From the NCBI RefSeq assembly GCF_988243305.1, contig NZ_OZ547136.1: 64,000 nucleotides of DNA. The stretch is one strand, 5' to 3'. This document shows positions 464 through 39,481 of the stretch, piece by piece. A program made the position numbers and the translations under genes. How positions within the stretch are numbered: position 1 is the first letter of the stretch; each line of letters opens with the position of its first letter. The notes under the pieces are model-generated. The model was not told the origin of the DNA, searched no databases, and was given only the letters and a program-made list of their open reading frames with translations.

Positions 464-2773
464 ATGGAGTTATGGATATTTATAGTAGCTATTTATTTGA
501 TTTATATTCTTTTTTTCAAAAAGAAGAAAACTAAGTCCGCGGGCTCTTATACTTCCGCTCCTGTGAAAGCACCACCTAAAGAATGGCTTGCTAACAACAA
601 AAAAAATCAGTCTGTAATGCAAAACGAGGACAGCGAAGATGACAATCTGGCTACGTTTACACTAAGTGGCGGGCGGAATGTCGAATACAGCATAACAGCC
701 ACTCAACGCCAGAATTTCTCAAAAACTACCGGTGCTTTGGCTCGTTGGATTTTTCCGGGAGAGATGATCACAATCAGTGGGATAGAGGTTACCGGCGGTC
801 ACTTCTATCTTGGGCAGCGTATGAAACCTGCCGGGCATAACTCAGGCGGTTATTATGATGGCAATAACGAGGCATCGCTAGTTGACGACACGCTTAAAAT
901 ATACCCCACACCTTACATTTACGAAGATAGTTCATTAGGGTATTGGCCCAGTTTTTCCTCACTTTCACCTGAAGCTCGTGGTGCGTACCTGAGTTGGCTT
1001 GCCAGCGACAGATGCGACACTTCCTGCCCAATTGGTTACGTTTTCATTTATCTGTATGGTCTGGAAAGAAGGGCGCTTGTTGACAGCAGGGACAACAATA
1101 TATCCGACGATGAGTTCTATTCTCTTTTCAAAGAGATCTGCCGTCTCAGATCGGTTTTCAATGAAAACCGATCTTTCCGGAATTACTCATCCCAGTTACT
1201 TGAAGCGATGTCCATTCTTCGTCTGAACGAAAATCTTGCAGCAGCTCTCAACGATGATTCGGAGTTCAGCAATAGCATGCAGTTCAGGTTAATCCTGGCA
1301 AAGACTGTTGATACAGGAGCCCCGGTTCCAGCGGATCTGGCTCTGACGTGGGTGACAAACCATGCTGAATACTCATTACGAACCCCCGCCCGCCGCTGTG
1401 CGAAAGAATTTGCTGCACTATTTAAACGGCGTTACACCCTTAAATACGGTGAAGGGATGGTAGTGAAGCCGAATAAAGCGCGTCTGCGTTTAGATTACAC
1501 GCCTGCAAGTCCCAGTTTGCGAGGTATTCGGCTTCCTGTTCCCGACTTGCCTGATCCAGGTGCATTGAAAGGCCCTGTTCAGAAGCTTATGGCCATTGCC
1601 GATATATGCACAGGTGAACTGGATGCTTACAGTCGTTACCTTGGTAGAAAAGGTACTTCAGCAAATGATACCGCTGCAATTTTGTTGCTGCCTTCAGAAA
1701 TCGTTAACGAAAGCGCAGAAAAAATATTAAGTACATTCAAACACTGGGCTGATGACGCAATCCGCAGTAAGGGTGGGATAGTTTCAGTTGCTGACTACTG
1801 GTCACATATGAATGCCACCTGTCCGGCGAAGATCAATAAAAAAGAGGCCGACTTAATGCAAGCCTTTGCACAGAAAATGGGATACTGTCTGGCTCCTGAC
1901 CCCTATCACCACCACGTAAAGGCAGATGTCGATGGTGTACTTGTTTTATTCCCTGCTGGTGAAAGAGGACGTTTCTCACCTTCTCCTGAATTTATCACAG
2001 CTGTATTGACGCTCCGATTAGGTTCGGTAGTCGCCTTGATTGACAATTCTCTCGATCAAGCCGAACAGAAAGTGCTTGAGAATGCCATCAACAACAATGC
2101 CAGCTTCAGCGATGATGAAAAGCGCTCTCTGCACGCATATTTAACGTGGCAGCTTCATACTCCGGCGAATATGACGGGAATGAAAAGCCGGATTGAATTA
2201 CTCGGTGCAGCGGAAAAATCAGCTGTGGGTAAGGTTATCGTTAGTGTCGCTTGCTCTGACGGCAGAATTACGCCTGCCGAAATCAAACAGCTTGAGAAGA
2301 TTTATACAAGCCTGGGACTGGATCCCTCATCCGTATCAAGCAATATCCATCAGCATTCCGCAACTGAAACTGCTCTCGTTTCATCTGTACCAGCTAATCA
2401 GTCGACGGCAGGATTTACGCTGGATGCCAACGTACTTGCCCGCCACGAATCTGCCACTGATGATGTTCGTAAATTACTGAACTCAATTTTCACTGAAGAA
2501 GAACCAGAACAACCAGAAAGCGCTCCAGCCTCATTAACCGGGGAAGGGGGACTTGACTCCGCTCATAGCCAACTTTATCGCAGGTTGCTGGAGAAAGAAC
2601 AATGGTCCAGAAAAGAGGCGACAGAGTTGTGTAGTAACTGGAACCTGATGCTCGGCGGTGCGCTTGAGGTGATTAACGATTGGTCCTATGCGGTGGTTGA
2701 TGCACCAGTGCTGGAAGATGCTGATGATCACATTTGGATTGACCTGGAAATAGCCAAAGAATTAGAGGGTTAG
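464..2773 (+). CDS. Membrane-anchored TerB-domain protein (TerB plus TerB-C-like C-terminus); SngA-like component of a Shango-type defense operon
   Basis: 769-aa ORF; N-terminal hydrophobic helix (LWIFIVAIYLIYILFF); TerB-like motif VACSDGRITPAEIKQLEKIYTSLGLD; 3-bp gap to next gene. Confidence 0.7.
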   Translation: MELWIFIVAIYLIYILFFKKKKTKSAGSYTSAPVKAPPKEWLANNKKNQSVMQNEDSEDDNLATFTLSGGRNVEYSITATQRQNFSKTTGALARWIFPGEMITISGIEVTGGHFYLGQRMKPAGHNSGGYYDGNNEASLVDDTLKIYPTPYIYEDSSLGYWPSFSSLSPEARGAYLSWLASDRCDTSCPIGYVFIYLYGLERRALVDSRDNNISDDEFYSLFKEICRLRSVFNENRSFRNYSSQLLEAMSILRLNENLAAALNDDSEFSNSMQFRLILAKTVDTGAPVPADLALTWVTNHAEYSLRTPARRCAKEFAALFKRRYTLKYGEGMVVKPNKARLRLDYTPASPSLRGIRLPVPDLPDPGALKGPVQKLMAIADICTGELDAYSRYLGRKGTSANDTAAILLLPSEIVNESAEKILSTFKHWADDAIRSKGGIVSVADYWSHMNATCPAKINKKEADLMQAFAQKMGYCLAPDPYHHHVKADVDGVLVLFPAGERGRFSPSPEFITAVLTLRLGSVVALIDNSLDQAEQKVLENAINNNASFSDDEKRSLHAYLTWQLHTPANMTGMKSRIELLGAAEKSAVGKVIVSVACSDGRITPAEIKQLEKIYTSLGLDPSSVSSNIHQHSATETALVSSVPANQSTAGFTLDANVLARHESATDDVRKLLNSIFTEEEPEQPESAPASLTGEGGLDSAHSQLYRRLLEKEQWSRKEATELCSNWNLMLGGALEVINDWSYAVVDAPVLEDADDHIWIDLEIAKELEG

Positions 2774-2776
2774 TGA

Positions 2777-4093
2777 ATGTCTGTAACACGTATAAGAGTG
2801 AAAGAGCGCGACGCTATCATTCAGTCACTTAAGTCGGGAGTAACGCCAAGAATAGGTATTCAGCATATCCAGGTTGGCCGCGTGAATGAGATAACCGCCC
2901 TCCATCAGGATATTGAACGGATTGCTGATGGCGGGGCAAGCTTCAGACTTATCATTGGTGAGTACGGTTCCGGGAAAACATTCTTTTTAAGTGTTGTACG
3001 GTCTATTGCGTTAGAGAAGAAGCTGGTCACGGTCAGTGCAGACCTTTCTCCCGACAGACGTATCCACTCATCGGGAGGTCAGGCTCGTAATCTCTACTCA
3101 GAGCTTATGAAAAATATGTCCACCAGAAACAAACCAGATGGCAATGCATTACTTAGCGTTGTGGAAAGGTTTGTTACTGAGGCAAGGAAGGAAGCTGATG
3201 CGAACGGCTCCCTGGTCTCATCCGTTATTCATAAACGCCTTGCTGCTTTGTCAGATATGGTGGGAGGATATGACTTTGCGAAGGTCATTGACGCATTCTG
3301 GCGCGGGCATGAGCAGGATAACGAAACCTTAAAATCCAATGCTATTCGCTGGTTGCGGGGCGAGTACACCACAAAAACTGATGCCCGTAATGATCTTGAC
3401 GTCCGAACGATTATCTCAGACGCCTCGTTCTATGATTCTTTGAAGTTGATGAGCCTTTTTGTCCGTCAGGCAGGCTATGCCGGACTTTTAGTTAGCCTCG
3501 ACGAGATGGTGAACCTCTTCAAGTTGAATAATACGCAAGCGAGAACGGCCAACTACGAACAAATTTTGCGGATCCTGAATGACTGCCTGCAAGGCTCCGC
3601 TGAAAATATTGGTTTTATCCTCGGGGGGACGCCAGAATTTCTTTTCGATCCACGTAAGGGGCTCTACAGCTATGAAGCGCTCCAGTCGCGTCTGGCAGAA
3701 AACCGATTCGCACAGAAAGCTGGCGTGATTGACTACTCGTCCCCCACGCTGCATCTTGCCAGCCTCACTCCTGAGGAACTGTATATTTTACTGAAAAACC
3801 TTCGTCATGTTTATGCTGGTGGAGATCCCGCAAATTATCTGGTGCCAGATGATGCTCTGACCGGGTTTCTGCATCACTGCAGCAAAACCATCGGAGATGC
3901 TTACTTTCGAACTCCCCGCAATACCATAAAAGGTTTTCTGGATATGCTGGCTGTGCTGGAACAAAACAGAACGATGAACTGGCAAACCCTCATTGAGGGG
4001 GTGGCGATTGAAGAAGACAAGCTCAGCGATATGGATGATGCCATTGTGGAGGAAAGTGATGACGATGATGGCCTGGCGAATTTCAGATTATGA
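2777..4093 (+). CDS. P-loop ATPase (DUF2791/BrxC-like), SngB-like
   Basis: 438-aa ORF with Walker A GEYGSGKT; stop overlaps start of the helicase gene (ATGA at 4090). Confidence 0.7.
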   Translation: MSVTRIRVKERDAIIQSLKSGVTPRIGIQHIQVGRVNEITALHQDIERIADGGASFRLIIGEYGSGKTFFLSVVRSIALEKKLVTVSADLSPDRRIHSSGGQARNLYSELMKNMSTRNKPDGNALLSVVERFVTEARKEADANGSLVSSVIHKRLAALSDMVGGYDFAKVIDAFWRGHEQDNETLKSNAIRWLRGEYTTKTDARNDLDVRTIISDASFYDSLKLMSLFVRQAGYAGLLVSLDEMVNLFKLNNTQARTANYEQILRILNDCLQGSAENIGFILGGTPEFLFDPRKGLYSYEALQSRLAENRFAQKAGVIDYSSPTLHLASLTPEELYILLKNLRHVYAGGDPANYLVPDDALTGFLHHCSKTIGDAYFRTPRNTIKGFLDMLAVLEQNRTMNWQTLIEGVAIEEDKLSDMDDAIVEESDDDDGLANFRL

Positions 4094-6288
4094 GTAGTGC
4101 CTACAATAGTCTTGATCCCCGTGTCCGTAAGTGGGTTTATAAGCAGGGCTGGTCATCCTTAAGGCCCTTGCAGGAAAGCTCTATTCCGGCAATTTTAGCC
4201 CGTGATCGTGATGTACTAATTAGTGCAGGTACAGCTGCGGGTAAAACAGAGGCTTTCTTTCTTCCTGCCTGTTCAGCGATTGCAGATCTCACTGGTGGAT
4301 TTGGCATTATCTATATCAGTCCATTGAAGGCATTAATTAACGATCAACACCGTCGTCTTGAGAGTCTTGGTGAAGCCCTGGAAATGCAAGTGACGCCCTG
4401 GCACGGGGATGTACCACAAAGCAAAAAGAAGAAAGCACGGACAACCCCTTCTGGCATCTTACTTATCACACCTGAATCACTTGAGTCTTTGCTCATAAAC
4501 TCATTGGGTTGGCTCAAACAGGCGTTTTCTTCTGTGGCATACATTGTTATTGATGAGTTCCATGCTTTTATTGGCTCAGAGCGTGGTATACAGCTGCTTT
4601 CTCTGCTTAACAGAATTGACCATGTGCTGGGACGCCAGTTGAATCCAGTTCCCCGTGTCGCGTTGAGTGCCACGCTGGGAGAGCTGGAAAAAGTACCAGA
4701 ACTATTGCGCCCGGATAAGAGATTACCTTGTGAAACGGTAACAGACAGTAATAGCAAAGCCACACTACAGGTTCAGGTTAAAGGTTATCTTGAGCGGGTG
4801 CCCGAAAAAGGAGAAGAGCTCCAGAGCTCTGCTGAACAGCTCGTCTGCGCGGATATTTTCAGGCTCTGCCGTGGCGATTCCCACCTGGTCTTTGCTAACA
4901 GTCGAAAGCGTACTGAAAGCATAGCGGCAACACTGAGCGACATGTGTGAAGCAAATGTCGTTCCTAATGAATTCTTTCCTCATCATGGTTCCCTTGCAAG
5001 GGAGTTGCGTGAGGCGCTTGAAGCCCGACTGCAGAAAGGGAATTTGCCCACAACCGCTGTTTGTACAATGACGCTGGAGCTGGGTATTGATATTGGTAAG
5101 GTGCAGTCTGTCATACAAGTGACACCTCCGCATTCTGTTTCCAGTCTGCGTCAACGCATGGGACGTTCAGGGCGGCGCGATTCCCCATCGGTGCTGAGAA
5201 TGTTAATTACTGAACCTGAACTTACCGCAACCAGCAGCATTGTGGATCATTTACGGCTGCAGTTGGTTCAGGCGATGGCAATGATCAGGTTGATGATCTC
5301 TAAGCGCTGGTTCGAGCCTGCAGATATCCGGCAGAAACATTACTCCACACTACTACACCAGATCCTGGCTATTACTGCGCAATGGGGAGGTGTTCGTGCC
5401 GATCAGCTCTGGTCACAACTTTGCCAGACAGGTCCGTTCCGGAATGTGGATATAAATGACTTCAAAAGTCTGCTTAAACATATGGGGACATGTGGCCTGC
5501 TCACTCAACTAACCAGCGGTGAAATAGTTGTCGGGGCTGAGGGGGAGAAGCTGACTAATCACTACACGTTTTATGCCGTATTCAATACACCTGAGGAGTT
5601 TCGCATTGTAACGGGAAACCGAACTCTTGGCACAGTGCCTGTAGACTCCCCACTTTTGCCGGAGCAGCACATCATCTTCGGCGGACGGCGCTGGAAAGTG
5701 ACAGAGATCGAGGTTGAAAAAAAGGTTATCTATGTTGAGACGACTAAAGGCGGTCAGCCGCCACTATTCAGTGGTACCGGGATGTCTGTTCATGATGTTG
5801 TTCGCCAGGAAATGCTCACTATCTACAGGGAAAATGATTACCGTATCGCGGTAGGCAACAAGAGAGTCGATTATGCTGATGCCGCAGCCAGAAGCCTCTT
5901 CGCGGAAGGAAGTGACAACTTCCAACGCTACAATCTACAAAATGACTGTTTTATTGCCAGTGGTCAGAACTGCTACGTGATCCCGTGGATGGGGGATAAA
6001 ATTGTCAATACAATTACGTCCCTGATTATACGTTGTGGCTTTAAAGCCAGTTCATTTGCAGGTGTGATAGAGGTAGAGGACTCAGGCGTTGCCTCTGTCC
6101 AGCGTGCACTTAAGAAAATGCTATTGTCGGGGCTACCTTCAGAGTTTGAGCTTGCTGCAGTTGTTCCCGACAAGTATCTGGATAAATATGACGAGTATTT
6201 ACCAGAGACTTTGCTTGCTAAAGGGTATGGGGCACAGGCGTATGATATAGAAGGAACGTGCATCTGGCTGCAGAAACACCTTCAGTAG
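4090..6288 (+). CDS. DEAD/DEAH-box superfamily-2 helicase with C-terminal extension (DUF1998-like), SngC-like
   Basis: 732-aa ORF; motif I GTAAGKTEAF, motif II VIDEFHAF; third gene of overlapping operon. Confidence 0.75.
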   Translation: MSSAYNSLDPRVRKWVYKQGWSSLRPLQESSIPAILARDRDVLISAGTAAGKTEAFFLPACSAIADLTGGFGIIYISPLKALINDQHRRLESLGEALEMQVTPWHGDVPQSKKKKARTTPSGILLITPESLESLLINSLGWLKQAFSSVAYIVIDEFHAFIGSERGIQLLSLLNRIDHVLGRQLNPVPRVALSATLGELEKVPELLRPDKRLPCETVTDSNSKATLQVQVKGYLERVPEKGEELQSSAEQLVCADIFRLCRGDSHLVFANSRKRTESIAATLSDMCEANVVPNEFFPHHGSLARELREALEARLQKGNLPTTAVCTMTLELGIDIGKVQSVIQVTPPHSVSSLRQRMGRSGRRDSPSVLRMLITEPELTATSSIVDHLRLQLVQAMAMIRLMISKRWFEPADIRQKHYSTLLHQILAITAQWGGVRADQLWSQLCQTGPFRNVDINDFKSLLKHMGTCGLLTQLTSGEIVVGAEGEKLTNHYTFYAVFNTPEEFRIVTGNRTLGTVPVDSPLLPEQHIIFGGRRWKVTEIEVEKKVIYVETTKGGQPPLFSGTGMSVHDVVRQEMLTIYRENDYRIAVGNKRVDYADAAARSLFAEGSDNFQRYNLQNDCFIASGQNCYVIPWMGDKIVNTITSLIIRCGFKASSFAGVIEVEDSGVASVQRALKKMLLSGLPSEFELAAVVPDKYLDKYDEYLPETLLAKGYGAQAYDIEGTCIWLQKHLQ

Positions 6289-6302
6289 ACTGGATATGTA
6301 GT

Positions 6303-6340
6303 CAGGGTATAAATAAGTATTTATACCCTTATTTTTTACT
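6303..6340 (+). terminator. Rho-independent terminator after the helicase gene
   Basis: Hairpin AGGGTATAAATA-ag-TATTTATACCCT followed by TATTTTTT, 15 bp after stop codon at 6286-6288. Confidence 0.6.
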
Positions 6341-6659
6341 TACCTGTGGACTTACTTGGCTTTAATCCCGGAGTATTGCCAGGAGTATCTTTATTATCGC
6401 GTCGGCGTTGATCCGGTTTTCCTGTTGACTTAGCAATTGGTTTTGGACCTGGTTTTAGACCCATGATAGTTATCCTTCGAGATGTAAGAGGAATGCCCTC
6501 AACATTGGTATATTCTATACTGAGAAATTTTTCAATGGGAATGTTCAACGGCCGAATGATTAACTCGATATTGTGAGCAATGTCTTTTTTTGGCACAGAG
6601 CGAACCGTTAGATTGCGCGTATTTTTATGGAAGGAGATCATCCAATAACGGTTATTCAC
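6336..6659 (-). CDS. Hypothetical protein, Lys/Pro/Gly-rich C-terminus; last gene of the ParB/PAPS-reductase operon
   Basis: 107-aa ORF; N-terminal peptide MISFHKNT shared with the ORF starting at 11417; no recognisable domain. Confidence 0.35.
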   Translation of the reverse strand: MNNRYWMISFHKNTRNLTVRSVPKKDIAHNIELIIRPLNIPIEKFLSIEYTNVEGIPLTSRRITIMGLKPGPKPIAKSTGKPDQRRRDNKDTPGNTPGLKPSKSTGK

Positions 6660-6723
6660 CGTTCTCCTTTATGGTAATACGAACCTGTTTTTTTAATATA
6701 TAGAAAAATTACTCCGACATGTT

Positions 6724-7368
6724 TTATCTTTTTGAAATCAGGACATTTACCAACTCACTTAAAACTCTCTTTTGTTCTTCATCCTGAAGATATTGAATCC
6801 GGAATTTAATCTCTTCTGCAACCCGCCTTGTATCGGACTCATTAAGTATTTTTGTTATTCGCTGTCTCTGATGTTCAGGCTGGTCTTCCATATTTCGTAA
6901 AACCAGATGAAATAATATATCATAAAGTGCGCAATGCCATGAATAACCATCATTGGTTAGAATAAGCTCCCAAACCCGCTCCTGTTCGGCAATAAGCTGC
7001 AGAACAAAGGATTCAACCTGTTCTGATTGTCCGGGGACAACCCGGTATAGCGGCGCAATCACAGCAAAAAACAGTTCATTTAGCCAGGATTCCGCCTCTT
7101 TCTCGCTCCTGAAAGATGGACAGTTCTGTATTCTTCGTTCGTATTCACGGGTAACCTGCTCCGGAATATCCTCCGGCGGTGTCAGCCACTTATTCCTGAG
7201 CAATATACTGGTTGACGGATGGCAGCAGGCTATTTCAGCAATAATTTCACGTAATGCCTCCGGGCTGAATTTCTTCAGCTGATTGTAGTGCTCCCGGGTA
7301 AAACCATGATCATCGCATAAAAGTTGCCATGTCATTGATATACTGTTTGCCATTCCTTTCTTCATCAT
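6724..7368 (-). CDS. Hypothetical protein (214 aa), operon partner of ParB-like/PAPS-reductase-like genes
   Basis: Intact ORF 20 bp downstream of preceding gene on same strand; no recognised domain. Confidence 0.5.
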   Translation of the reverse strand: MMKKGMANSISMTWQLLCDDHGFTREHYNQLKKFSPEALREIIAEIACCHPSTSILLRNKWLTPPEDIPEQVTREYERRIQNCPSFRSEKEAESWLNELFFAVIAPLYRVVPGQSEQVESFVLQLIAEQERVWELILTNDGYSWHCALYDILFHLVLRNMEDQPEHQRQRITKILNESDTRRVAEEIKFRIQYLQDEEQKRVLSELVNVLISKR

Positions 7369-30553: not shown

Positions 30554-30565
30554 TCCCGCCATAAC

Positions 30566-30600
30566 AAAAAGCCAGCAGTGTCTGCCTGCTGGCTTTTTGT
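30566..30600 (+). terminator. Rho-independent terminator (also the probable group II intron target)
   Basis: Hairpin GCCAGCAG-tgtctgc-CTGCTGGC followed by TTTTT, 13 bp after stop codon. Confidence 0.7.
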
Positions 30601-30603
30601 TAT

Positions 30604-32406
30604 GTGCGCCGTGACTGGCGCTGTTCTTCAACTGTGGTGGCAGAAGAACGACTAAGAGGTGAAAGTCCTCCACACACCCGGTGAGGGGAAGTGTTAGCGG
30701 AAGGCAAGGGTGTTCATCGCGAGGTGAAATCTGAAGGAAGCTGGATGCAAAATGCTGGCCTGACGAACAGGAAGCGGTTAAGTCGGCGCAGCAGGGTAAG
30801 GTGGCACAAATCACCAAAGCCCGATACTCACACGGAACGCTGTGACGTAAAGCCGACAGGCATAAGCAGGAAAGTCGCGTGAATTACCCCGGGAGATCTG
30901 TCGCCCTGCCAGTGTGCTACCGGCGCCGTGAGGCGCCGGGATGGGGCGGCAGAAGTCAGCCGACGCCGTAGTAGTGCTGCAAAACCGGCAGCATGAAGGG
31001 CCGAACATGATTAACTGTGATTAGGACATCCGAACCCGATGATGATTAATGAAGCACAAGCGCAGGCAACTGCGACCAGCGGCAGAGGAGACGGACAGTA
31101 TCCGTCAGGGCTGCATGATGGCGCTGAAATCAGCACGGCGGCGGGTGGGCAAACGAAAGCGGAAGTGCCGCTGACGATGGAAGCGGTGATAACGAGAGAA
31201 AACCTGATGCTGGCTTATCAGCGCGTGGTGGAAAACAAAGGCACGGCGGGGGTGGATAACCTCAGCGTGGCGGAGTTGAAACCGTGGCTGAAGAAGAACT
31301 GGCGCAGCGTCAGGCAGGCATTGATTGACGGAAACTACCAGCCGCGGGCAATACGCCGGATGGATATCCCGAAGCCGCATGGCGGCGTGAGAACCTCAGG
31401 CATCCCGACGGTGGTGGACAGGCTTATCCAGCAGGCGGTGCAACAGGCACAGCGTTACATACGGGGTGGCAAACGGTGGGTGGTGGATATGGATCTGGAG
31501 AAGTTCTTCGACCGTGTGGATCACAGACTCCTGATGACGCGTCTGGCCAGAACGATAAAGGACAGGCGGGTGCTGTGACTGATACGCCGCTACCTGAAAG
31601 CGGAAATGGTTAAAGACGGGCAAAGGGAGAAACGGCAGGCGGGCATGCTGCAGGGCGGCCCACTGTCGCCGTTACTGTCGAACATCCTGCTGGATGAACT
31701 GGATAAAGAACTGGAGCGTCGTGGACACAGCTTCTGCCGCTACGCAGACGACTGCAACATCTACGTAAGCAGCCGGAAAGCGGGCGACCATCTGCTGAAG
31801 AACATCAGGGCGTTCGTGGAGAACAAACTGAAGGTGAATGAGAAGAAGAGCGCGGTGGCGCGCCCGTGGGATCGGAAGTTCCTCGGGTACAGTGTGACAT
31901 GGCACAAACAGGCGAAGCTGAAGATAGCCCTGACGAGCGTGAACAGGCTGAAGGAGAAAGTCCACAGTCTGACGACGGGAAACCGGAGCAAATCAGTGAA
32001 AGCGACAATCAATGCTCTGACACCAGTGCTGTGTGGATGGATAAGCTACTTCAGGCTGACGGAAGTCAGAGGAGTGCTGGAGGAGCTGGATGGCTGGATC
32101 AAACGGAAACTGCGTTGCTTGTTGTAGCGGCAGTGGAAGAGACCGCTAACCCGGGCAAAGAACCTGCAAAGAGCAGGACTGAGTAAGGACAGGGCAATGA
32201 TCTCTGCGTACAACAACCACGGGCCATGGTGGAACTCAGGGTCAAGCCATATGAATCAGGCGATAAAGAATACATGGTTCAGGAGGCAGGGTCTGATATC
32301 ACTGCTGGAACAGTAGAGGCAGTTCCAGAGTTAACATGAACCGCCGTATGCGGAACCGCACGTACGGTGGTGTGAGAGGACGGCGGGAGTGATCCCGCCT
32401 CCTACT
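30604..32406 (+). mobile_element. Group II intron (bacterial class C-like, inserted just downstream of a terminator hairpin), degenerate
   Basis: 5' end GTGCG at 30604; domain V-like hairpin at ~32341-32372; internal RT/maturase ORF; 3' boundary approximate. Confidence 0.7.
31039..32316 (+). pseudogene. Group II intron reverse transcriptase/maturase with two in-frame stop codons and an internal deletion
   Basis: RT motifs (LEKFFDRVDH, QGGPLSPLLSNILLD, YADD); in-frame TGA at 31576-31578 and TAG at 32125-32127 with homology continuing downstream (GPWWNSGSSHMN); ~30 aa missing after LIQQAV. Confidence 0.75.
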
Positions 32407-32676
32407 CGATCAATTTTAAAACACCTCCTATGTAGGTGGTGATCGTTCATGTGGGGCTTTCTGACAGACTGCCTCGTCATTCCATTCGTATCGCCAGTAA
32501 CTGGCGTTTGTATTGTGGCAGTTCTGGTATACGTTTCCCTGTGTATCTGCACTGGTTCAGCAAGGTTTGAAAAGGAGTATCCCTTGCAAATAACCGAAGC
32601 ATTACTTTCAGAGCCGGAGCTGTTTTTGTTGCTGTGATCCATTTCAATTTTTTCGTGACAAATTATTTATAAATAT

Positions 32677-33939
32677 ATGATTATGTTTTTAAAAATGCAG
32701 GCTGAAAGTATGAAGAATAAATACAAATTAAATGAGTTTTTGGATGTAAAACGCCTTCAGACCCTGCAGGACAACTTTTCAAAATCAATGATGATCGCGC
32801 TCGTGGTTGTGGATGAGAATGGTATCCCGGTCACTAAGCCCAGCGGTTTTTCAGACTTCTGCATGCGTTCGCGTCTCAACCCGACACTGGCGCACCACTG
32901 TTATGAAAGCGACAACGCTGGTGGCCGGGCCGCGATGCACGCTCGCAAACCGGTGGTTTATCGCTGCCACTGCGGTTTTGTCGAATTCGCTGTCCCAATC
33001 ATGATTAACGATCATTATCTCGGTGCTTTTATTTCCGGTCAGGTAAAAGTCGAAGAAGAGAAAGAACAGAGCATTTCCTATATTCTGAATAATAATGACG
33101 TCTGGAAAGATAATCCTTGGTTAATTAATTTGCACCAGAATACACGTCGCATGCCGTATGAGCGTTTTGAGTCTACTGCCTCGACGTTACTACACGTATC
33201 GTCTTATCTGGTCGAACAAGCGCACACCAATAATATCCAACGCGAACTTCGTAAAAAGGATCTTGCACTGGCTAATGAGTTAAGAAAACGTGTAGAGATA
33301 GAACGCTCACTACATGAAGCTGAATTTAAAGCGCTCTCTTATCAGATAAATCCGCACTTTTTATTTAACGTATTAAATACCATTGGCCGGTTAGCTTTTC
33401 TTGAAGATGCGCAGCGTACCGAAACAATGGTGCACGATTTCTCTGACATGATGCGCTATTTGTTACGTAAAAATAGTCACGGCCTGATTACTCTGCGTAA
33501 TGAAATAAATTACGTCAACAACTATATGTCGATCCAAAAAGTGCGTATGAGAGACCGTTTCGATTACCTGTGCGATATCCCGGAAAAATATCTGGATGTA
33601 GTCTGCCCGTTTTTGATCCTGCAACCGCTGGTGGAAAACTTCTTTAACTACGTAGTGGAGCCAAGGGATAGCAATAGTCATCTGCTGATCCGTGCCACGG
33701 ACGATGGCCTGAACGTGATTATTGAAGTCACTGACAATGGCGACGGCATCGCACCAGATACCATTAATCGCATTTTATCAGGCGACCAAAAATTGCAAAA
33801 AGGCAGTATTGGCATTAACAACATAAAAAATAGATTGAAGTTGTTATTTGGCGAGAGCTATGGCTTGGAAATAATGAGCCCTAACAAACCCAGGATGGGT
33901 ACAACCATTAAACTTCGGTTCCCAATGCAGGAAGCCTGA
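32677..33939 (+). CDS. Sensor histidine kinase with N-terminal PocR ligand-binding domain
   Basis: 420-aa ORF; PocR-like N-terminus, His-kinase region ([11 protein letters not shown]) and HATPase_c; start may be at 32695 or 32710. Confidence 0.8.
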
Positions 33940-33955
33940 TACAGGAAAAGGACAT

Positions 33956-35011
33956 ATGTTTACCATTGTTATCGTTGAAGATGAGCCCATCGAATTAGAA
34001 TCCCTGCGGCAGATTATCTCCCAGTGTGTGGAAAACGCTGCGATCCATGAAGCCTCAACCGGTAAAAAAGCGATTCACTTAATTGACCAACTGAGTCAAA
34101 TCGATATGATCTTAGTGGACATTAATATTCCGTTGCCGAACGGTAAACAGGTGATTGAATATCTGAAGAAAAAAAACAGCGATACTAAAATCATCGTAAT
34201 CACGGCCAATGATGACTTTGATATAGTACGCAGCATGTACAACCTTAAAGTGGATGATTATCTGCTCAAACCAGTGAAAAAATGTATCTTGACCGACACC
34301 ATCAAAAAAACCCTAGCATTCGACGAAGGAGAAAATGAAAAATCCCGCGCCCTAAAACAGAAAGTGTTCGCCATGATAGACGATTGCGATTACACCCAGT
34401 GGCACAACTTTATTTTTGACACGCTCAACGGTGCCTGTCCGGTGGATATGATAGAAGAGGATAAGCGCAAAGACGTGATCGATTTTCTGGAAATAGTTAG
34501 CCAGTATATGACCGCCAAAGGGGAAAAGTTAATGCCGACTAACCGTAAAGTCGCCGCGCTGATCAAAGACATCAACCAGTATGGCATGATGGAAAGCCGC
34601 TATTTCCGCATCATGATCAGCCTGCTGACCATTAGCGAAGAGCTGTTTGATTACGCATTAAAAGGCTATACAGGCAATATCGATTTTATCGAACGAGCGA
34701 AATTCCATATTGAGAAAAATATTCTCAGAAACTTGACGCTCGATGACGTGGCAGCAAAATCGTTTGTCAGTGCCTGCTATTTGAGCCGTACCTTTAAGAA
34801 AATTACCGGGTTCGGGTTTTCGAACTATATTGCCACGCGTAAAATTACTATCGCCAAATCGTTATTGCGGTTCAGTGACTTACAAGTAAATACCATTGCG
34901 CTGGAACTGGCATACCAGGATTCAAACTATTTTTGCCGCATCTTCAAAAAAGATACTGGCATGACCCCCTCTGATTATCGAAAAGTCGTGTCCCCGGGAA
35001 TTACACGGTGA
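33956..35011 (+). CDS. Response regulator with AraC-type HTH output domain
   Basis: 351-aa ORF; receiver domain (IVIVEDEP...LVDINIP) and C-terminal AraC HTH. Confidence 0.85.
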   Translation: MFTIVIVEDEPIELESLRQIISQCVENAAIHEASTGKKAIHLIDQLSQIDMILVDINIPLPNGKQVIEYLKKKNSDTKIIVITANDDFDIVRSMYNLKVDDYLLKPVKKCILTDTIKKTLAFDEGENEKSRALKQKVFAMIDDCDYTQWHNFIFDTLNGACPVDMIEEDKRKDVIDFLEIVSQYMTAKGEKLMPTNRKVAALIKDINQYGMMESRYFRIMISLLTISEELFDYALKGYTGNIDFIERAKFHIEKNILRNLTLDDVAAKSFVSACYLSRTFKKITGFGFSNYIATRKITIAKSLLRFSDLQVNTIALELAYQDSNYFCRIFKKDTGMTPSDYRKVVSPGITR

Positions 35012-35078
35012 TGGCGTGATTTTGCATTGGCCCGATAATGAAAGCAAAATAGTCCAACACGCCCGCAAGATAGTTTAC

Positions 35079-35134
35079 GCCCACTTGTCAGGTTCCTATC
35101 CTAAGATAGGAATAAACTTCCCAAACAAGTGGGC
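35079..35134 (+). promoter_or_regulatory. Nested inverted repeat immediately upstream of the MetK-paralog start codon (candidate RNA structure or operator)
   Basis: Outer stem GCCCACTTGT/ACAAGTGGGC enclosing inner palindrome TTCCTATC-ctaa-GATAGGAA; ends 6 nt before the TTG start; no SD visible. Confidence 0.35.
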
Positions 35135-35139
35135 TCGCT

Positions 35140-36291
35140 TTGAACGATTACCTGTTTACCTCCGAATCCGTTGCCGAAGGGCATCCCGATAAAATGGCGG
35201 ACCAAATTTCTGATGCCATTTTGGATGCGATACTCCTACAGGACCCGTGGGGTAAGGTTGCCTGTGAATGCTTGGTGAAAACTGGTGCCACTATTGTTGC
35301 CGGAGAAATATCTACCCATGCCGCCGTGGATATTGAGAAGATTGTCCGCAACACCATAAAAGAGATTGGTTACGACCATTCGCGATTGGGGTTTGATGGC
35401 AATACCTGCTGTGTATTAAATATCCTTGGCAAACAGTCCGCCAATATTGCTGACGGCATTCGCGGCCACTCGATGGAAGAACTGGGGGCGGGCGATCAGG
35501 GCATCACCTTCGGTTACGCCTGTGATGAAACGTCGGAACTGATGCCCGCCACGCTGGTATACGCCCATCGTCTGATGGAGCGCCAGGCGCAGTTGCGTAA
35601 ATCCCAACGGTTACCATTTTTACTCCCTGATGCCAAAAGCCAGGTTACCCTGCGCTATCAGGATAATCGTGTTCATTCAGTAGATACCGTTGTGGTGTCT
35701 ACCCAACACAGCCCTGACGTTTCTCTGGACGCGCTACGGGAAGCGGTCATCGAAGAAATTGTTAAACCTGTGATGCCTTCGCACTGGCTCACGCCACAAA
35801 CCCGCTTTCTGGTGAACCCTGCAGGCAGTTTTGTGATTGGCGGGCCGGTGGGTGACTGCGGGCTAACGGGGCGTAAAATTATTGTTGATACCTATGGCGG
35901 CGCGGCTTGCCATGGCGGCGGCGCGTTTTCAGGCAAAGATCCGTCGAAAGTCGATCGTTCCGCCGCCTACGCTGCTCGCTATGTGGCGAAAAACATCGTC
36001 GCCGCTGGGCTTGCCTCACGCTGTGAAGTCCAGTTGGGATGGGCCATCGGCCTGCCCCGCCCTGTTTCCGTCAGGATTAACACCTTCGGTACACAAACAG
36101 TGTCATCTGAAGCGTTGCTGAGAGGCGTTAACAGCCATTTCGATCTTAGCGTGTTCGGCATCATTACTACGCTTGATCTGCTGGTCCCCCGCTATCGTAA
36201 AACAGCCTGCTATGGTCACTTTGGTCGCGACAGCTTTCCGTGGGAAGTTACGGACAAAGCGGCGCTATTATACGAAGACGTTGGACGTTAA
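35140..36291 (+). CDS. metK: S-adenosylmethionine synthetase (MetK paralog embedded in GRM locus)
   Basis: 383-aa ORF with MetK motifs [23 protein letters not shown] start inferred from alignment to MetK N-terminus; diverges from E. coli MetK as recalled. Confidence 0.85.
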
Positions 36292-36335
36292 GCCGACGAC
36301 GCGCAGCACAGTTGAATTTATTACAGGAGAAATTT

Positions 36336-36881
36336 ATGTCTGGGAAAAGTTTAGGCTTAATCGAAACCGTCGGGATGTCTGCGGCGGTAGAAGCCGCCGA
36401 TGCCGCAATGAAATCCGCTAACGTTAGTCTGGTAGGCTATGAATTGACGAAAGGCGGCGGGATGGTGACCGTGAAGCTGGAAGGGGAAGTGGGCGCAATT
36501 AACGCGGCGGTAGCGGCAGCCATCAGCGCGGCAAGCCGGGTTGGCGAGGTGTATGCCCATAAGGTGATCGCCCGCACCGCGCAGCATATCGAGCAGATTA
36601 TTCACTCTAAAGTGACCGCCGGCGTCGCAGAACCTCAACCTGAAGTGCCTGCTGCACAACCGACACTGCAGGCTGAAAACGCGCCTTCACAGACATTCCC
36701 GGTGGTTAACCTTGATACGTCAATCAGCGCATCCTGTATGGATGTCACTGATGAAACGCTGAAGTCCATGGAGCAGCATCAACCGGTTAAACCCTCAATA
36801 GAAAACACTAAACCTACAAAATCTGATGTACCGCAGGAGGCAGCAAAGAAAGGTCCTCGTTCCAGCGGCAAGAAAAAATAA
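36336..36881 (+). CDS. BMC-H shell protein with long low-complexity C-terminal extension
   Basis: Start at ATG 36336 with RBS ACAGGAGA; BMC domain (MSGKSLGLIETVGMSAAVEAAD) then ~90-aa Pro/Ser/Lys-rich tail. Confidence 0.8.
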   Translation: MSGKSLGLIETVGMSAAVEAADAAMKSANVSLVGYELTKGGGMVTVKLEGEVGAINAAVAAAISAASRVGEVYAHKVIARTAQHIEQIIHSKVTAGVAEPQPEVPAAQPTLQAENAPSQTFPVVNLDTSISASCMDVTDETLKSMEQHQPVKPSIENTKPTKSDVPQEAAKKGPRSSGKKK

Positions 36882-36899
36882 GTAAATTGCTATGACGCT

Positions 36900-36937
36900 G
36901 CCGCGATAACAATTTCTTTATCGCGGCATTTTTTTGC
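36900..36937 (+). terminator. Rho-independent terminator at end of GRM locus
   Basis: Hairpin GCCGCGATA...TATCGCGGC followed by ATTTTTTT, 19 bp after stop. Confidence 0.65.
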
Positions 36938-37237
36938 TTAACAGATAAAGTAAAAAACCATCTGCATAGCGGGCGGCTTTGACACGGCCCCCTGAAAGGG
37001 GGCTTAAACACTACCCTTTCAGGCCCAGTTGTATTTGTCTTTCTTCTTCCTCTTTTGCTACCTTGTTCGAAAAGGGACGCTCGTCCTCGCCCACTGTTCT
37101 GTATGCATACCTGCTCCCACTGCAAATTATATTGCTGGGCTATGTTAACAAGCCTATATGCTATTAAAAACTCATGAGCAACATATTGATAATACCATTC
37201 TTATATATCCACGCTTAAGTAAATAACTCTTACATAA

Positions 37238-37582
37238 CTAACTATTCCATCTCACTTCTTCCTTAGCGAGTTTTCGGTATGCAATAGGAGCTATACCAAA
37301 GCGGCGAGTAAATGCCCTTGTAAATGTCTGCTGAAAATCAAACTGATATTTAAAAGTGATAGTCGTGACCGATTCAGTAGTAGAACGTAGTTCTTCTGCT
37401 GCATTTATTAATATACCTACCAATAGAAATACCAATGATATGTTTAAACAATTTCTGTAAATACCATTTTGAATATCCAGCTTTTTTGCCTCAATATTTA
37501 TTGAGAGTTCTACCTCAAGATTTTCATCAATTCATTTAGCAAGCTCATTGATATCAGCGCTGTTTTTTATAGTAGCGTTCAT
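37238..37582 (-). pseudogene. MarA/SoxS-family AraC-type regulator with in-frame premature TGA codon
   Basis: Translation MNATIKNSADINELAK-stop-IDENLEV...QQTFTRAFTRRFGIAPIAYR aligns with SoxS/MarA; stop sits where homologs have Trp; start overlaps 3' end of TetR-family gene. Confidence 0.5.
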
Positions 37583-38225
37583 TTTTATCGATGCCTGTGA
37601 AGGTTGATTGGGTCAACTCCAGTACTATGCAACCCTCTCTGAAAAGGGATTTATTATCAGGTTGCAGAATGCAACTTCGCACCACCCCCGTAAACAAAGA
37701 AAAAAGCAGGAACGCCAGAGCCTCACTACGAATTTCCGAACATATTTCTCTATATAACTTACCTTTTTCGAAAATATAACATAGTAATTTCACAAAATTA
37801 TTGACATCCACCATTTTTTGTAAGAAATTTATTCTTATATCATCCGGACATTCTTCACAAAAAAACACAATATAAATTACATTCCGTAAGTGTACATTAT
37901 ATTGTAATTTAATCAGGCTACGTGATAAGCAACGATACATCGCTTTAACCGGTTCAGAAACTCTCCCATTTTTGATGGCTGTAAGCTCATCAAATAATGA
38001 TAGTGGTACCCGCTCGATGACTTGTCGCAGAAGATCTTTTTTTTCGTTGAAATACCAGTATATGGCCCCCCGAGTACAACCTGCGCGCACCGCAATCATC
38101 TCCAGTGTCGTCTTCGAAAAGCCCGTCTCACAAAAGCAGAACTCTGCCGCATCCAGGATTTGTTTGCGGGTTTCTTCCGCTGCAAATTTTGTGTGCCGCA
38201 CCACTGTTGAAATCTCCATTGACAT
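37554..38225 (-). CDS. TetR-family transcriptional regulator (AcrR/EnvR-like)
   Basis: 223-aa ORF with N-terminal TetR HTH (TRKQILDAAEFCFCETGFSKTTLEMIAVRAGCTRGAIYWYF). Confidence 0.8.
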   Translation of the reverse strand: MSMEISTVVRHTKFAAEETRKQILDAAEFCFCETGFSKTTLEMIAVRAGCTRGAIYWYFNEKKDLLRQVIERVPLSLFDELTAIKNGRVSEPVKAMYRCLSRSLIKLQYNVHLRNVIYIVFFCEECPDDIRINFLQKMVDVNNFVKLLCYIFEKGKLYREICSEIRSEALAFLLFSLFTGVVRSCILQPDNKSLFREGCIVLELTQSTFTGIDKNERYYKKQR

Positions 38226-38324
38226 CTTATTTCAGGAAATATCTCTGGGGCATTTAGTACCAACCCAACAGCCATTTACTCAGGCGCAGTATGTTGTTTA
38301 CTGCACCTGAATATTTACTCATGC

Positions 38325-39481
38325 TTATGATTGCTCAGCTTCAGTCTTATCCGATGATTTCTTATTTCTGCGGCTGAAGAACCCGGCAATTAACATATAG
38401 AAGAGAGGAATATAAAAGATTGCCAGTATCGTAGCAGTGATCATCCCTCCAACCACACCAGTACCGATGGCATGTTTACTTCCGGAACTTGCTCCAGTCG
38501 AGACAGCCAGTGGGATAACCCCCATTACAAATGCCAGCGAAGTCATAATTATCGGTCTTAACCTCACTCTCGCCGCTTCAACAGCAGCCTCTTTAATGCT
38601 TAGTCCTTCTTTCTCATGCAATTCACGAGCAAACTCCACGATAAGTATGGCATTTTTCGCAGACAGCCCTATTGTTGTTAATAAACCGACCTGGAAAAAG
38701 ACATCGTTACCAAGGCCGCGCAACAAAGTAGCACAGACAGCCCCCAGGACACCAAGCGGAACAACCAGCATGACCGAGAAAGGAATGCTCCAGCTTTCAT
38801 ACAGTGCAGCCAGACACAGAAAGACGATCAACAGTGAAAGTGCATATAGTGCAGGAGCCTGAGAACCTGAAAGTCGTTCCTCAAAAGACAAACCTGTCCA
38901 GGAAATATGGAAACCTTCGGGAAGTCTTGCCGCAATATCCTCAATTGCTTTCATTGCATCCCCGGAACTGTATCCTGGTGCCGGTTCCCCCAGGATTTCG
39001 ACAGCAGAGATACCATTATATTGCTCCAGTTTTGGTGAGCCATAAATCCATTTGCCTGTTGCAAAAGAGGCAAAGGAAACCATGTCGCCATCACTGTTAC
39101 GGACATACCATTTATCAAAATCCTGCGGTGATATACGTGAGCCGGGTTCGCCCTAAATATAGACTTTTTTCACCCGTCCACGATCGTTAAAATCATTTAC
39201 ATACATCGAACCCCAGGCTGCTGGCATTATGTTGTCGACGTCGCTCATGCTCAGTTTAAGCGCCTGAACTTTCTCGTCATCAATCAGAATCTGGAACTGA
39301 GGCTCATCGTTCATGCCGTTAGGACGAACCATGTTTAACGCTGGACTTTTCGCCGCTTCAGCAAGAAGCTGATTTCGGGCCTGGATCATTTTTTCATGGC
39401 CAGCTCCGCTACGATCCTCGAGGAACAGGTCAAACCCTGTAGCATTCCCCAGTTCTGATACGGCAGGGGGCGTTTTAAAAC
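38325..39481 (-). pseudogene. RND efflux transporter (AcrB/AcrF-like) 3' remnant, frameshifted and truncated by IS2
   Basis: 252-aa ORF matches AcrB C-terminal TM bundle; adjacent 78-aa ORF (39153-39389) matches an internal AcrB segment in another frame; 5' end replaced by IS2 at 39482. Confidence 0.75.

Follow-up and report, generated by a model that had tools for sequence, protein, structure and literature searches.

The window analysed here, a stretch of 64,000 nucleotides from contig NZ_OZ547136.1 of RefSeq assembly GCF_988243305.1, comes from an Escherichia coli chromosome and covers the glycyl-radical propanediol (grp) microcompartment island, within which stop codons interrupt two coding sequences: ltrA, the reverse transcriptase (RT)/maturase gene of the group II intron E.c.I6, and a gene for a regulator of the RamA/MarA/SoxS type. 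These are very probably two unrelated, long-inactive pseudogenes on an accessory island that have been decaying under neutral mutation. The nonsense codons are best read as by-products of relaxed selection and not as the inactivating events, an order that the alleles of other strains show for the regulator and for an adjoining RND efflux permease gene, and that we infer for the RT.

An earlier note on this DNA, made from the letters alone, had described otherwise intact genes that were recently inactivated by single nonsense codons. The three stops that it named are present, the two in ltrA lying in the frame that opens at 31039, and homology continues beyond each of them, with the regulator aligning over its full length with intact alleles and the RT with intact ltrA genes. 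The genes are not otherwise intact, however, as the RT lacks 87 bp and 6 bp and has a third stop, and the regulator has suffered deletions of 1 bp and 14 bp. The list of stops was also incomplete, since a CAG-to-TAG change in the RT and another in the RND permease gene had been missed. The positions of all lesions are collected in Table 1.

The island is, by its annotated context, the same as that in the uropathogenic strain CFT073. The 5.7-kb segment from 32600 to 38300 is 100% identical to many E. coli chromosomes that carry grpP-grpS, and is found in 544 of 5426 complete genomes. The RefSeq annotation of one such genome, M217, gives the plus-strand order as grpM, grpN, grpO, two RT fragments, grpP, grpQ, grpR and grpS, and on the minus strand a "helix-turn-helix domain-containing protein", a TetR/AcrR regulator and an RND permease, followed by a transposase fragment.

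Table 1. Intron, pseudogenes, lesions and neighbouring genes in the grp island segment (window coordinates)
Feature	Position	Strand	Basis or distribution
Terminator-like hairpin and T-run of grpO	30560..30603	+	direct folding; intron begins immediately 3'
Group II intron E.c.I6 (bacterial class C), 1807 bp, non-autonomous decayed copy	30604..32410	+	colinearity with published E.c.I6-1a; Rfam
ltrA (RT/maturase) pseudogene	31039..32334	+	~96% DNA identity to intact 462-aa ltrA genes
87-bp in-frame deletion (about codons 131-160)	junction 31431..31437	+	alignment; common to all island copies
Nonsense TGA from AGA (Arg209), A-to-T transversion	31576..31578	+	island versus outside copies
6-bp deletion, one AAACTG unit (codons 292-293)	31819..31830 (about 31824)	+	intact versus window sequence
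Nonsense TAG from TGG (Trp394, maturase domain), G-to-A transition	32125..32127	+	changed base 32126
Third nonsense TAG from CAG (Gln457), C-to-T	32314..32316	+	some island lineages only
RamA/MarA/SoxS-like regulator pseudogene	37238..37582	-	homology of intact AF43 allele
14-bp deletion junction	37412..37413	-	all grp-island-linked alleles
A-run with 1-bp deletion	37482..37487	-	A6 in window; A7 in AF43, CREC-532, CFT073
Nonsense TGA from TGG (Trp17), G-to-A on coding strand	37532..37534	-	codon 17 of the reading frame 37582-37238
TetR/AcrR-family regulator, open (223 aa)	37554..38225	-	Pfam TetR_N
RND efflux permease 3' remnant (~380 codons)	38325..39472	-	Pfam ACR_tran profile positions 787-1020
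Nonsense TAG from CAG (Q709-to-stop) in RND remnant	39153..39155	-	window and M217; not CFT073 or AVS0096

The E.c.I6 intron and its ltrA gene

The intron begins with GTGCG and ends with CTCGAT, and all 1807 of its 1807 positions are colinear with E.c.I6-1a of CFT073 (NC_004431:4320108-4321914), with four mismatches and one N. Three Rfam models matched above the gathering score, each over its full length: group-II-D1D4-3 at 30713-30882 (134.7 bits), D1D4-1 at 30917-31001 (73.8 bits) and Intron_gpII, covering domains D5-D6, at 32339-32410 (50.4 bits). The base composition of the element is 58% G+C. E.c.I6 has been described as a class C intron of the 'PAI SelC-Island', present inside a mobile element as a full-length copy with a disrupted open-reading frame (ORF), and was recorded in E. 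coli CFT073, ED1a, S88 and APEC O1 (Leclercq & Cordaux 2012, PMC3522654). In both element and insertion site the window intron corresponds to the CFT073 copy, with no substantive difference. A scan of the window for tRNA genes, in which selC was sought as the attachment point of the island, returned zero tRNA genes.

Class C group II introns insert after intrinsic terminators, B.h.I1 being an example, and the position of the window intron has this character: a hairpin and T-run extend to the base directly before the first base of the intron. When folded together with that first base (30560-30604), the grpO hairpin forms a perfect 19-bp stem of -28.9 kcal/mol with z = -8.6; a simple terminator scan had missed this plus-strand hairpin, which direct folding revealed clearly. 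The reconstructed ancestral LtrA protein is also of the class C kind, with an RT domain (RVT_1, residues 110-316), a maturase domain (GIIM, residues 332-410) and no others. The window intron differs from autonomous members of the class in being unable to encode its own protein.

Lesions in ltrA were placed by aligning four island copies (window, ST95-32, HS13-1, FDAARGOS_1276) with five copies from outside the island. Intact ltrA genes of 462 codons with ~96% DNA identity were found by megablast on plasmids of E. fergusonii and E. coli, including IncF plasmids, and on the chromosome of strain M6. The window gene keeps its RT/maturase homology, with its ORF broken by three stops and two deletions. 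The 87-bp deletion removes AIAQQLSAIVDKSFSDSSYGFRPGRNAWQ and with it the conserved SYGFRPGR segment of the RT domain; in intact copies the 7-bp sequence GCAGGCG is directly repeated on either side of this stretch, so that the deletion probably arose by slippage or microhomology. The 6-bp deletion is the loss of one repeat unit, intact copies reading AACAAACTGAAACTGAAG and the window AACAAACTGAAG.

The first ltrA stop had been attributed to an arginine codon, probably CGA. Arginine is indeed what four of the five outside copies have at codon 209, but the source codon is AGA and the change a transversion: position 31576 is T in all four aligned island copies and A in all five outside copies (AGA in four, ATA in pO86A1), and a non-island copy of the intron in strain MIN11 also has AGA. 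The proposed origin of the second stop from TGG agrees with the alignment, with Trp394 in five of five outside copies and position 32126 being A in all island copies checked and G in the five outside ones. The third stop is confined to some island lineages, position 32314 being T in the window, M217, CFT073 and FDAARGOS_1276 and C in ST95-32, HS13-1 and the outside copies.

Both deletions, TGA-209 and TAG-394 are common to every island copy checked (CFT073, ST95-32, HS13-1, FDAARGOS_1276, M217, 7/2 and 47258). An intron-free version of the grpO-grpP junction, constructed artificially, had a contiguous match in none of the 5426 E. coli genomes. Because the lesions are shared by copies from diverged lineages and no empty site was found, they are judged to be older than the dispersal of the island among E. 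coli strains, and not recent. Pseudogenisation as such, which the earlier note had proposed, is upheld; its description as recent does not apply to the intron lesions, and only the regulator TGA is younger.

Sharing on this scale also bears on whether the stops might be sequencing or assembly errors in one genome. The 61-mers around the stops occur identically in 385 (TGA at 31576), 381 (TAG at 32125) and, for the regulator TGA, 321 of 512 independently sequenced complete E. coli genomes, and RefSeq ORFs are split at the same places in M217, CFT073 (two assemblies), ST95-32, HS13-1 and FDAARGOS_1276. Sampled near-matches to the two ltrA 61-mers either kept the stop with a neighbouring single-nucleotide polymorphism or belonged to a separate intron copy with AGA. 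Error in a single genome therefore has practically no probability.

The sequence of events that fits these data begins with E.c.I6 inserting directly 3' of the grpO terminator hairpin. Its ltrA gene would then have been disabled by the 87-bp microhomology deletion, the 6-bp slippage deletion and nonsense substitutions, or the copy may already have been dead on arrival; the disrupted copy was probably acquired in an inactivated state, according to Leclercq & Cordaux 2012 (PMC3522654). Either way, the intron would have travelled as a passenger of the grp island to all E. coli lineages that have this island.

An exact-match scan for the 3' half of the terminator, run on one genome per species, found it only in two Atlantibacter genomes. 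The one of these that was read, Atlantibacter sp. RC6 (region 2158-7364), has a grpO terminator with no intron after it, that is, an empty terminator site; its grpP-grpQ-grpR-grpS genes converge on grpO and are thus inverted relative to E. coli. Other copies resembling E.c.I6 (FDAARGOS_1276, MLI108K2, pPSJ-14_2) carry independent lesions: 33 bp inserted near the 3' end of the ORF, an RT split by an 8-bp duplication, and 42 bp deleted together with an internal stop. This family of introns has decayed repeatedly in E. coli.

The regulator and its efflux neighbours

The regulator was identified through an intact allele in AF43, one of about eight genomes in the 80-90% identity band, in which the 119-aa regulator, the TetR gene and a 984-aa RND permease gene are all intact. 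The AF43 protein matches RamA (E = 1.3e-29), Rob (1.2e-28), SoxS (1.9e-27) and MarA (1.4e-24), and aligns with them from end to end through both helix-turn-helix motifs, whereas in the window copy codon 17 is a stop and helix-turn-helix 1 is scrambled. Against the 80 positions of Pfam HTH_18, the AF43 allele matches positions 2-79, and the AVS0096 form, which has the two deletions of the window without its stop, matches only 33-79. On this loss of the first 32 profile positions, helix-turn-helix 1 is judged to be destroyed by the two deletions, which together put ~26 codons out of frame across it. By homology of its intact allele, the gene belongs to the MarA/SoxS/Rob/RamA subfamily, while the window copy lacks the two helix-turn-helix motifs that characterise that subfamily, and it is classed on these sequence grounds as a pseudogene, a non-functional member.

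Four allele types order the lesions. The AF43 type is intact; the CFT073/CREC-532 type has the 14-bp deletion (ATCAGAGATAGCAG) and is frameshifted by it; the AVS0096 type adds a 1-bp loss in the A-run and is left with an open 114-aa ORF containing ~26 scrambled residues; and the window type has the 14-bp deletion, a 1-bp deletion and the change of codon 17. This codon is TGG in CFT073, CREC-532, AVS0096 and AF43 and TGA in the window and M217, as the earlier note had supposed, and it aligns with the conserved tryptophan of the WIDDNL/WLEGHL segment of RamA and Rob. Over the surrounding 61 bp, CFT073 and the window differ at the stop alone. Since CFT073 already has the 14-bp deletion and still reads TGG, the nonsense mutation came late, in a gene that was already frameshifted. 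The A-run of AVS0096 also has a C-to-A change, and the length of the run varies by lineage, toggling the frame downstream of the 14-bp deletion. Differences of the regulator from AF43 number 25 nonsynonymous and 12 synonymous, a relaxed ratio, beside 18 and 52 in the RND remnant.

Signs of decay extend to the two genes beside the regulator. The TetR gene is open in the window, but differs from AF43 by 18 synonymous and 20 nonsynonymous changes, is shortened in CFT073 and AVS0096 and is interrupted by IS1 in CREC-532; it is evolving in a relaxed way and is probably also becoming a pseudogene. The RND permease is a 3' remnant whose homology to the intact AF43 gene ends at its truncated edge, with the transposase fragment just past it; it differs from AF43 by 52 synonymous and 18 nonsynonymous changes, and RefSeq flags it 'internal stop; incomplete; missing N-terminus'.

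Taken together, the region to the right of grpS is very probably the stump of an efflux module that consisted of the RND permease, the TetR regulator and the RamA-like activator. The pump gene would have lost its first ~600 codons beside the transposase fragment. The activator, which now has no obvious role, gained the frameshifting 14-bp deletion, and the sublineage of the window later added the 1-bp deletion and the TGG-to-TGA change.

UGA is the leakiest stop codon of E. coli, and misreading of it by tRNA-Trp would give back the ancestral Trp17 of the regulator; full-length proteins might be made by decoding of the stops, whether by UGA or UAG readthrough, near-cognate tRNA-Trp at UGA, or selenocysteine insertion. 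An RT made in this way would still be short of 29 residues, including SYGFRPGR, and would need two or three separate readthrough events, and the regulator would still contain its ~26 out-of-frame residues across helix-turn-helix 1. The stops are moreover polymorphic among lineages and not conserved. Readthrough is thus extremely unlikely as an explanation, and the low rank that the earlier note gave to it and to sequencing artefact agrees with our results: hundreds of assemblies share the stops, and the deletions preclude rescue.

Mutational origin of the stops and possible residual function

Of the five nonsense codons in the stretch, one arose by an A:T-to-T:A transversion and the other four by G:C-to-A:T transitions. 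The suggestion that G:C-to-A:T transitions produced the stops is right for two of the three codons first named and wrong for the third, and the excess of such changes matches the local background and the genetic code. This background consisted of the 31 substitutions at which every island copy of the intron differs from four or more of the five outside copies; 19 of them (61%) are G:C-to-A:T (10 G-to-A, 9 C-to-T), a per-site rate ~2.7 times that of the reverse transition. When each of the 364 single-base changes that would create a stop in the three ancestral ORFs was weighted by this local spectrum, the expected nonsense shares were 72% for G:C-to-A:T and 14% for A:T-to-T:A, compared with the observed 4/5 and 1/5.

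Inspection of the code itself explains the pattern. Among sense codons, just CAA, CAG, CGA and TGG can become a stop by a single transition, and that transition is always C-to-T or G-to-A; a G:C-to-A:T pattern among stops is uninformative about the mutational process. Its predominance here follows from an AT-biased spectrum acting on a GC-rich intron, together with the structure of the code. Spontaneous mutation in bacteria is AT-biased, and the island spectrum has the same direction.

A specific mutational episode, such as hypermutation by cytosine deamination or a transient mutator phase, could be invoked to explain the 61% share of G:C-to-A:T among the intron substitutions and a cluster of G-to-A changes between 32126 and 32178. 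This spectrum is nevertheless ordinary in direction, exceeds the reverse rate only ~2.7-fold and has no strand asymmetry; one of the stops is an A-to-T transversion, the code forces stop-creating transitions to be G:C-to-A:T, and the lesions arose at staggered times in separate lineages. We regard such an episode as highly improbable. Strand-biased deamination in particular was ruled out by the balance of G-to-A and C-to-T changes. An apparent excess of private G-to-T changes in the window strain relative to M217 was considered and dropped, as genome H76 is almost identical to the window over the intron region.

The remnants may instead have kept or gained a function. The intron RNA might process or insulate between grpO and grpP or be trans-spliced with the help of a plasmid-encoded LtrA, and the C-terminal peptide of the regulator (37238-37435), with its single helix-turn-helix, might act as a regulator. 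Several observations lean this way: the intron has become fixed wherever the island occurs, leaving no empty site, its ribozyme domains still match the Rfam models in full, intact LtrA genes circulate on E. coli IncF plasmids, and the -1 and -14 deletions of the regulator bring the frame back, with RefSeq annotating a 61-aa helix-turn-helix protein. Substitution density on the island stem, however, is alike in the two parts of the intron, with 7 changes in 433 bp of ribozyme and 24 in about 1290 bp of ORF and thus no sign of constraint, and fixation of the intron follows from its linkage to the island. The regulator is broken differently in different lineages, and its substitution ratio relative to AF43 is the relaxed one given above. 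Function in these remnants is therefore very unlikely. The same small probability is given to the narrower idea that the protein-dead intron is not inert, being trans-spliced or mobilised by plasmid LtrA, or having lent its structured RNA to a new role, as a boundary or processing element where the grp structural operon meets grpPQRS.

Three points weigh against neutral decay of long-dead genes. The RT lesions are shared by all island copies, so that a nonsense mutation could have been the first hit in that gene. In the ltrA ORF, the 36 differences between the window and the consensus divide into 18 synonymous and 18 nonsynonymous, a mixed signal with more synonymous changes than pure neutrality predicts, so that part of the divergence is older than the inactivation. 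The two regulator deletions, finally, sum to 15 bp and restore the frame, which in AVS0096 leaves the 114-aa ORF open and might be a trace of selection still acting on the C-terminal helix-turn-helix.

Relation to known systems and annotation

Neutral decay, which we prefer, has the features known from bacterial pseudogenes in general, namely an excess of G:C-to-A:T changes, small deletions by slippage or microhomology, and secondary lesions specific to lineages. The RT half of the finding, the disrupted intron ORF, is already published, and the remainder is routine decay of an island remnant. What is added to the published E.c.I6 is the individual lesions with their ancestral states, the absence of an empty site in 5426 genomes, and the presence of related intact copies on plasmids. 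The paper on GrpP and GrpQ of CFT073 (PMC11724981) is silent on both the intron and the pseudogenes.

The AF43 locus resembles ramR-ramA, as the regulator is paired with a TetR-family gene and adjoins an RND pump gene. The ramR/ramA arrangement is divergent, whereas here the tetR gene and then the activator are co-directional and overlap.

The biological weight of these observations is small. They provide an example of how stops seen in raw sequence can be mistaken for what inactivated a gene although they are symptoms that appeared late, and of a G:C-to-A:T excess among nonsense mutations that is built into the genetic code. Their practical value lies in the annotation of the fragments, which RefSeq lists in M217, CFT073, ST95-32 and others as ordinary WP_ proteins and not as pseudogenes, under the labels "maturase", "reverse transcriptase domain-containing protein", "helix-turn-helix domain-containing protein" and "AraC family transcriptional regulator".

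Further to the right, M217 and the window are near-identical up to ~42256 and diverge sharply from 42704 on, which suggests a recombination or indel boundary in the right-hand part of the island.

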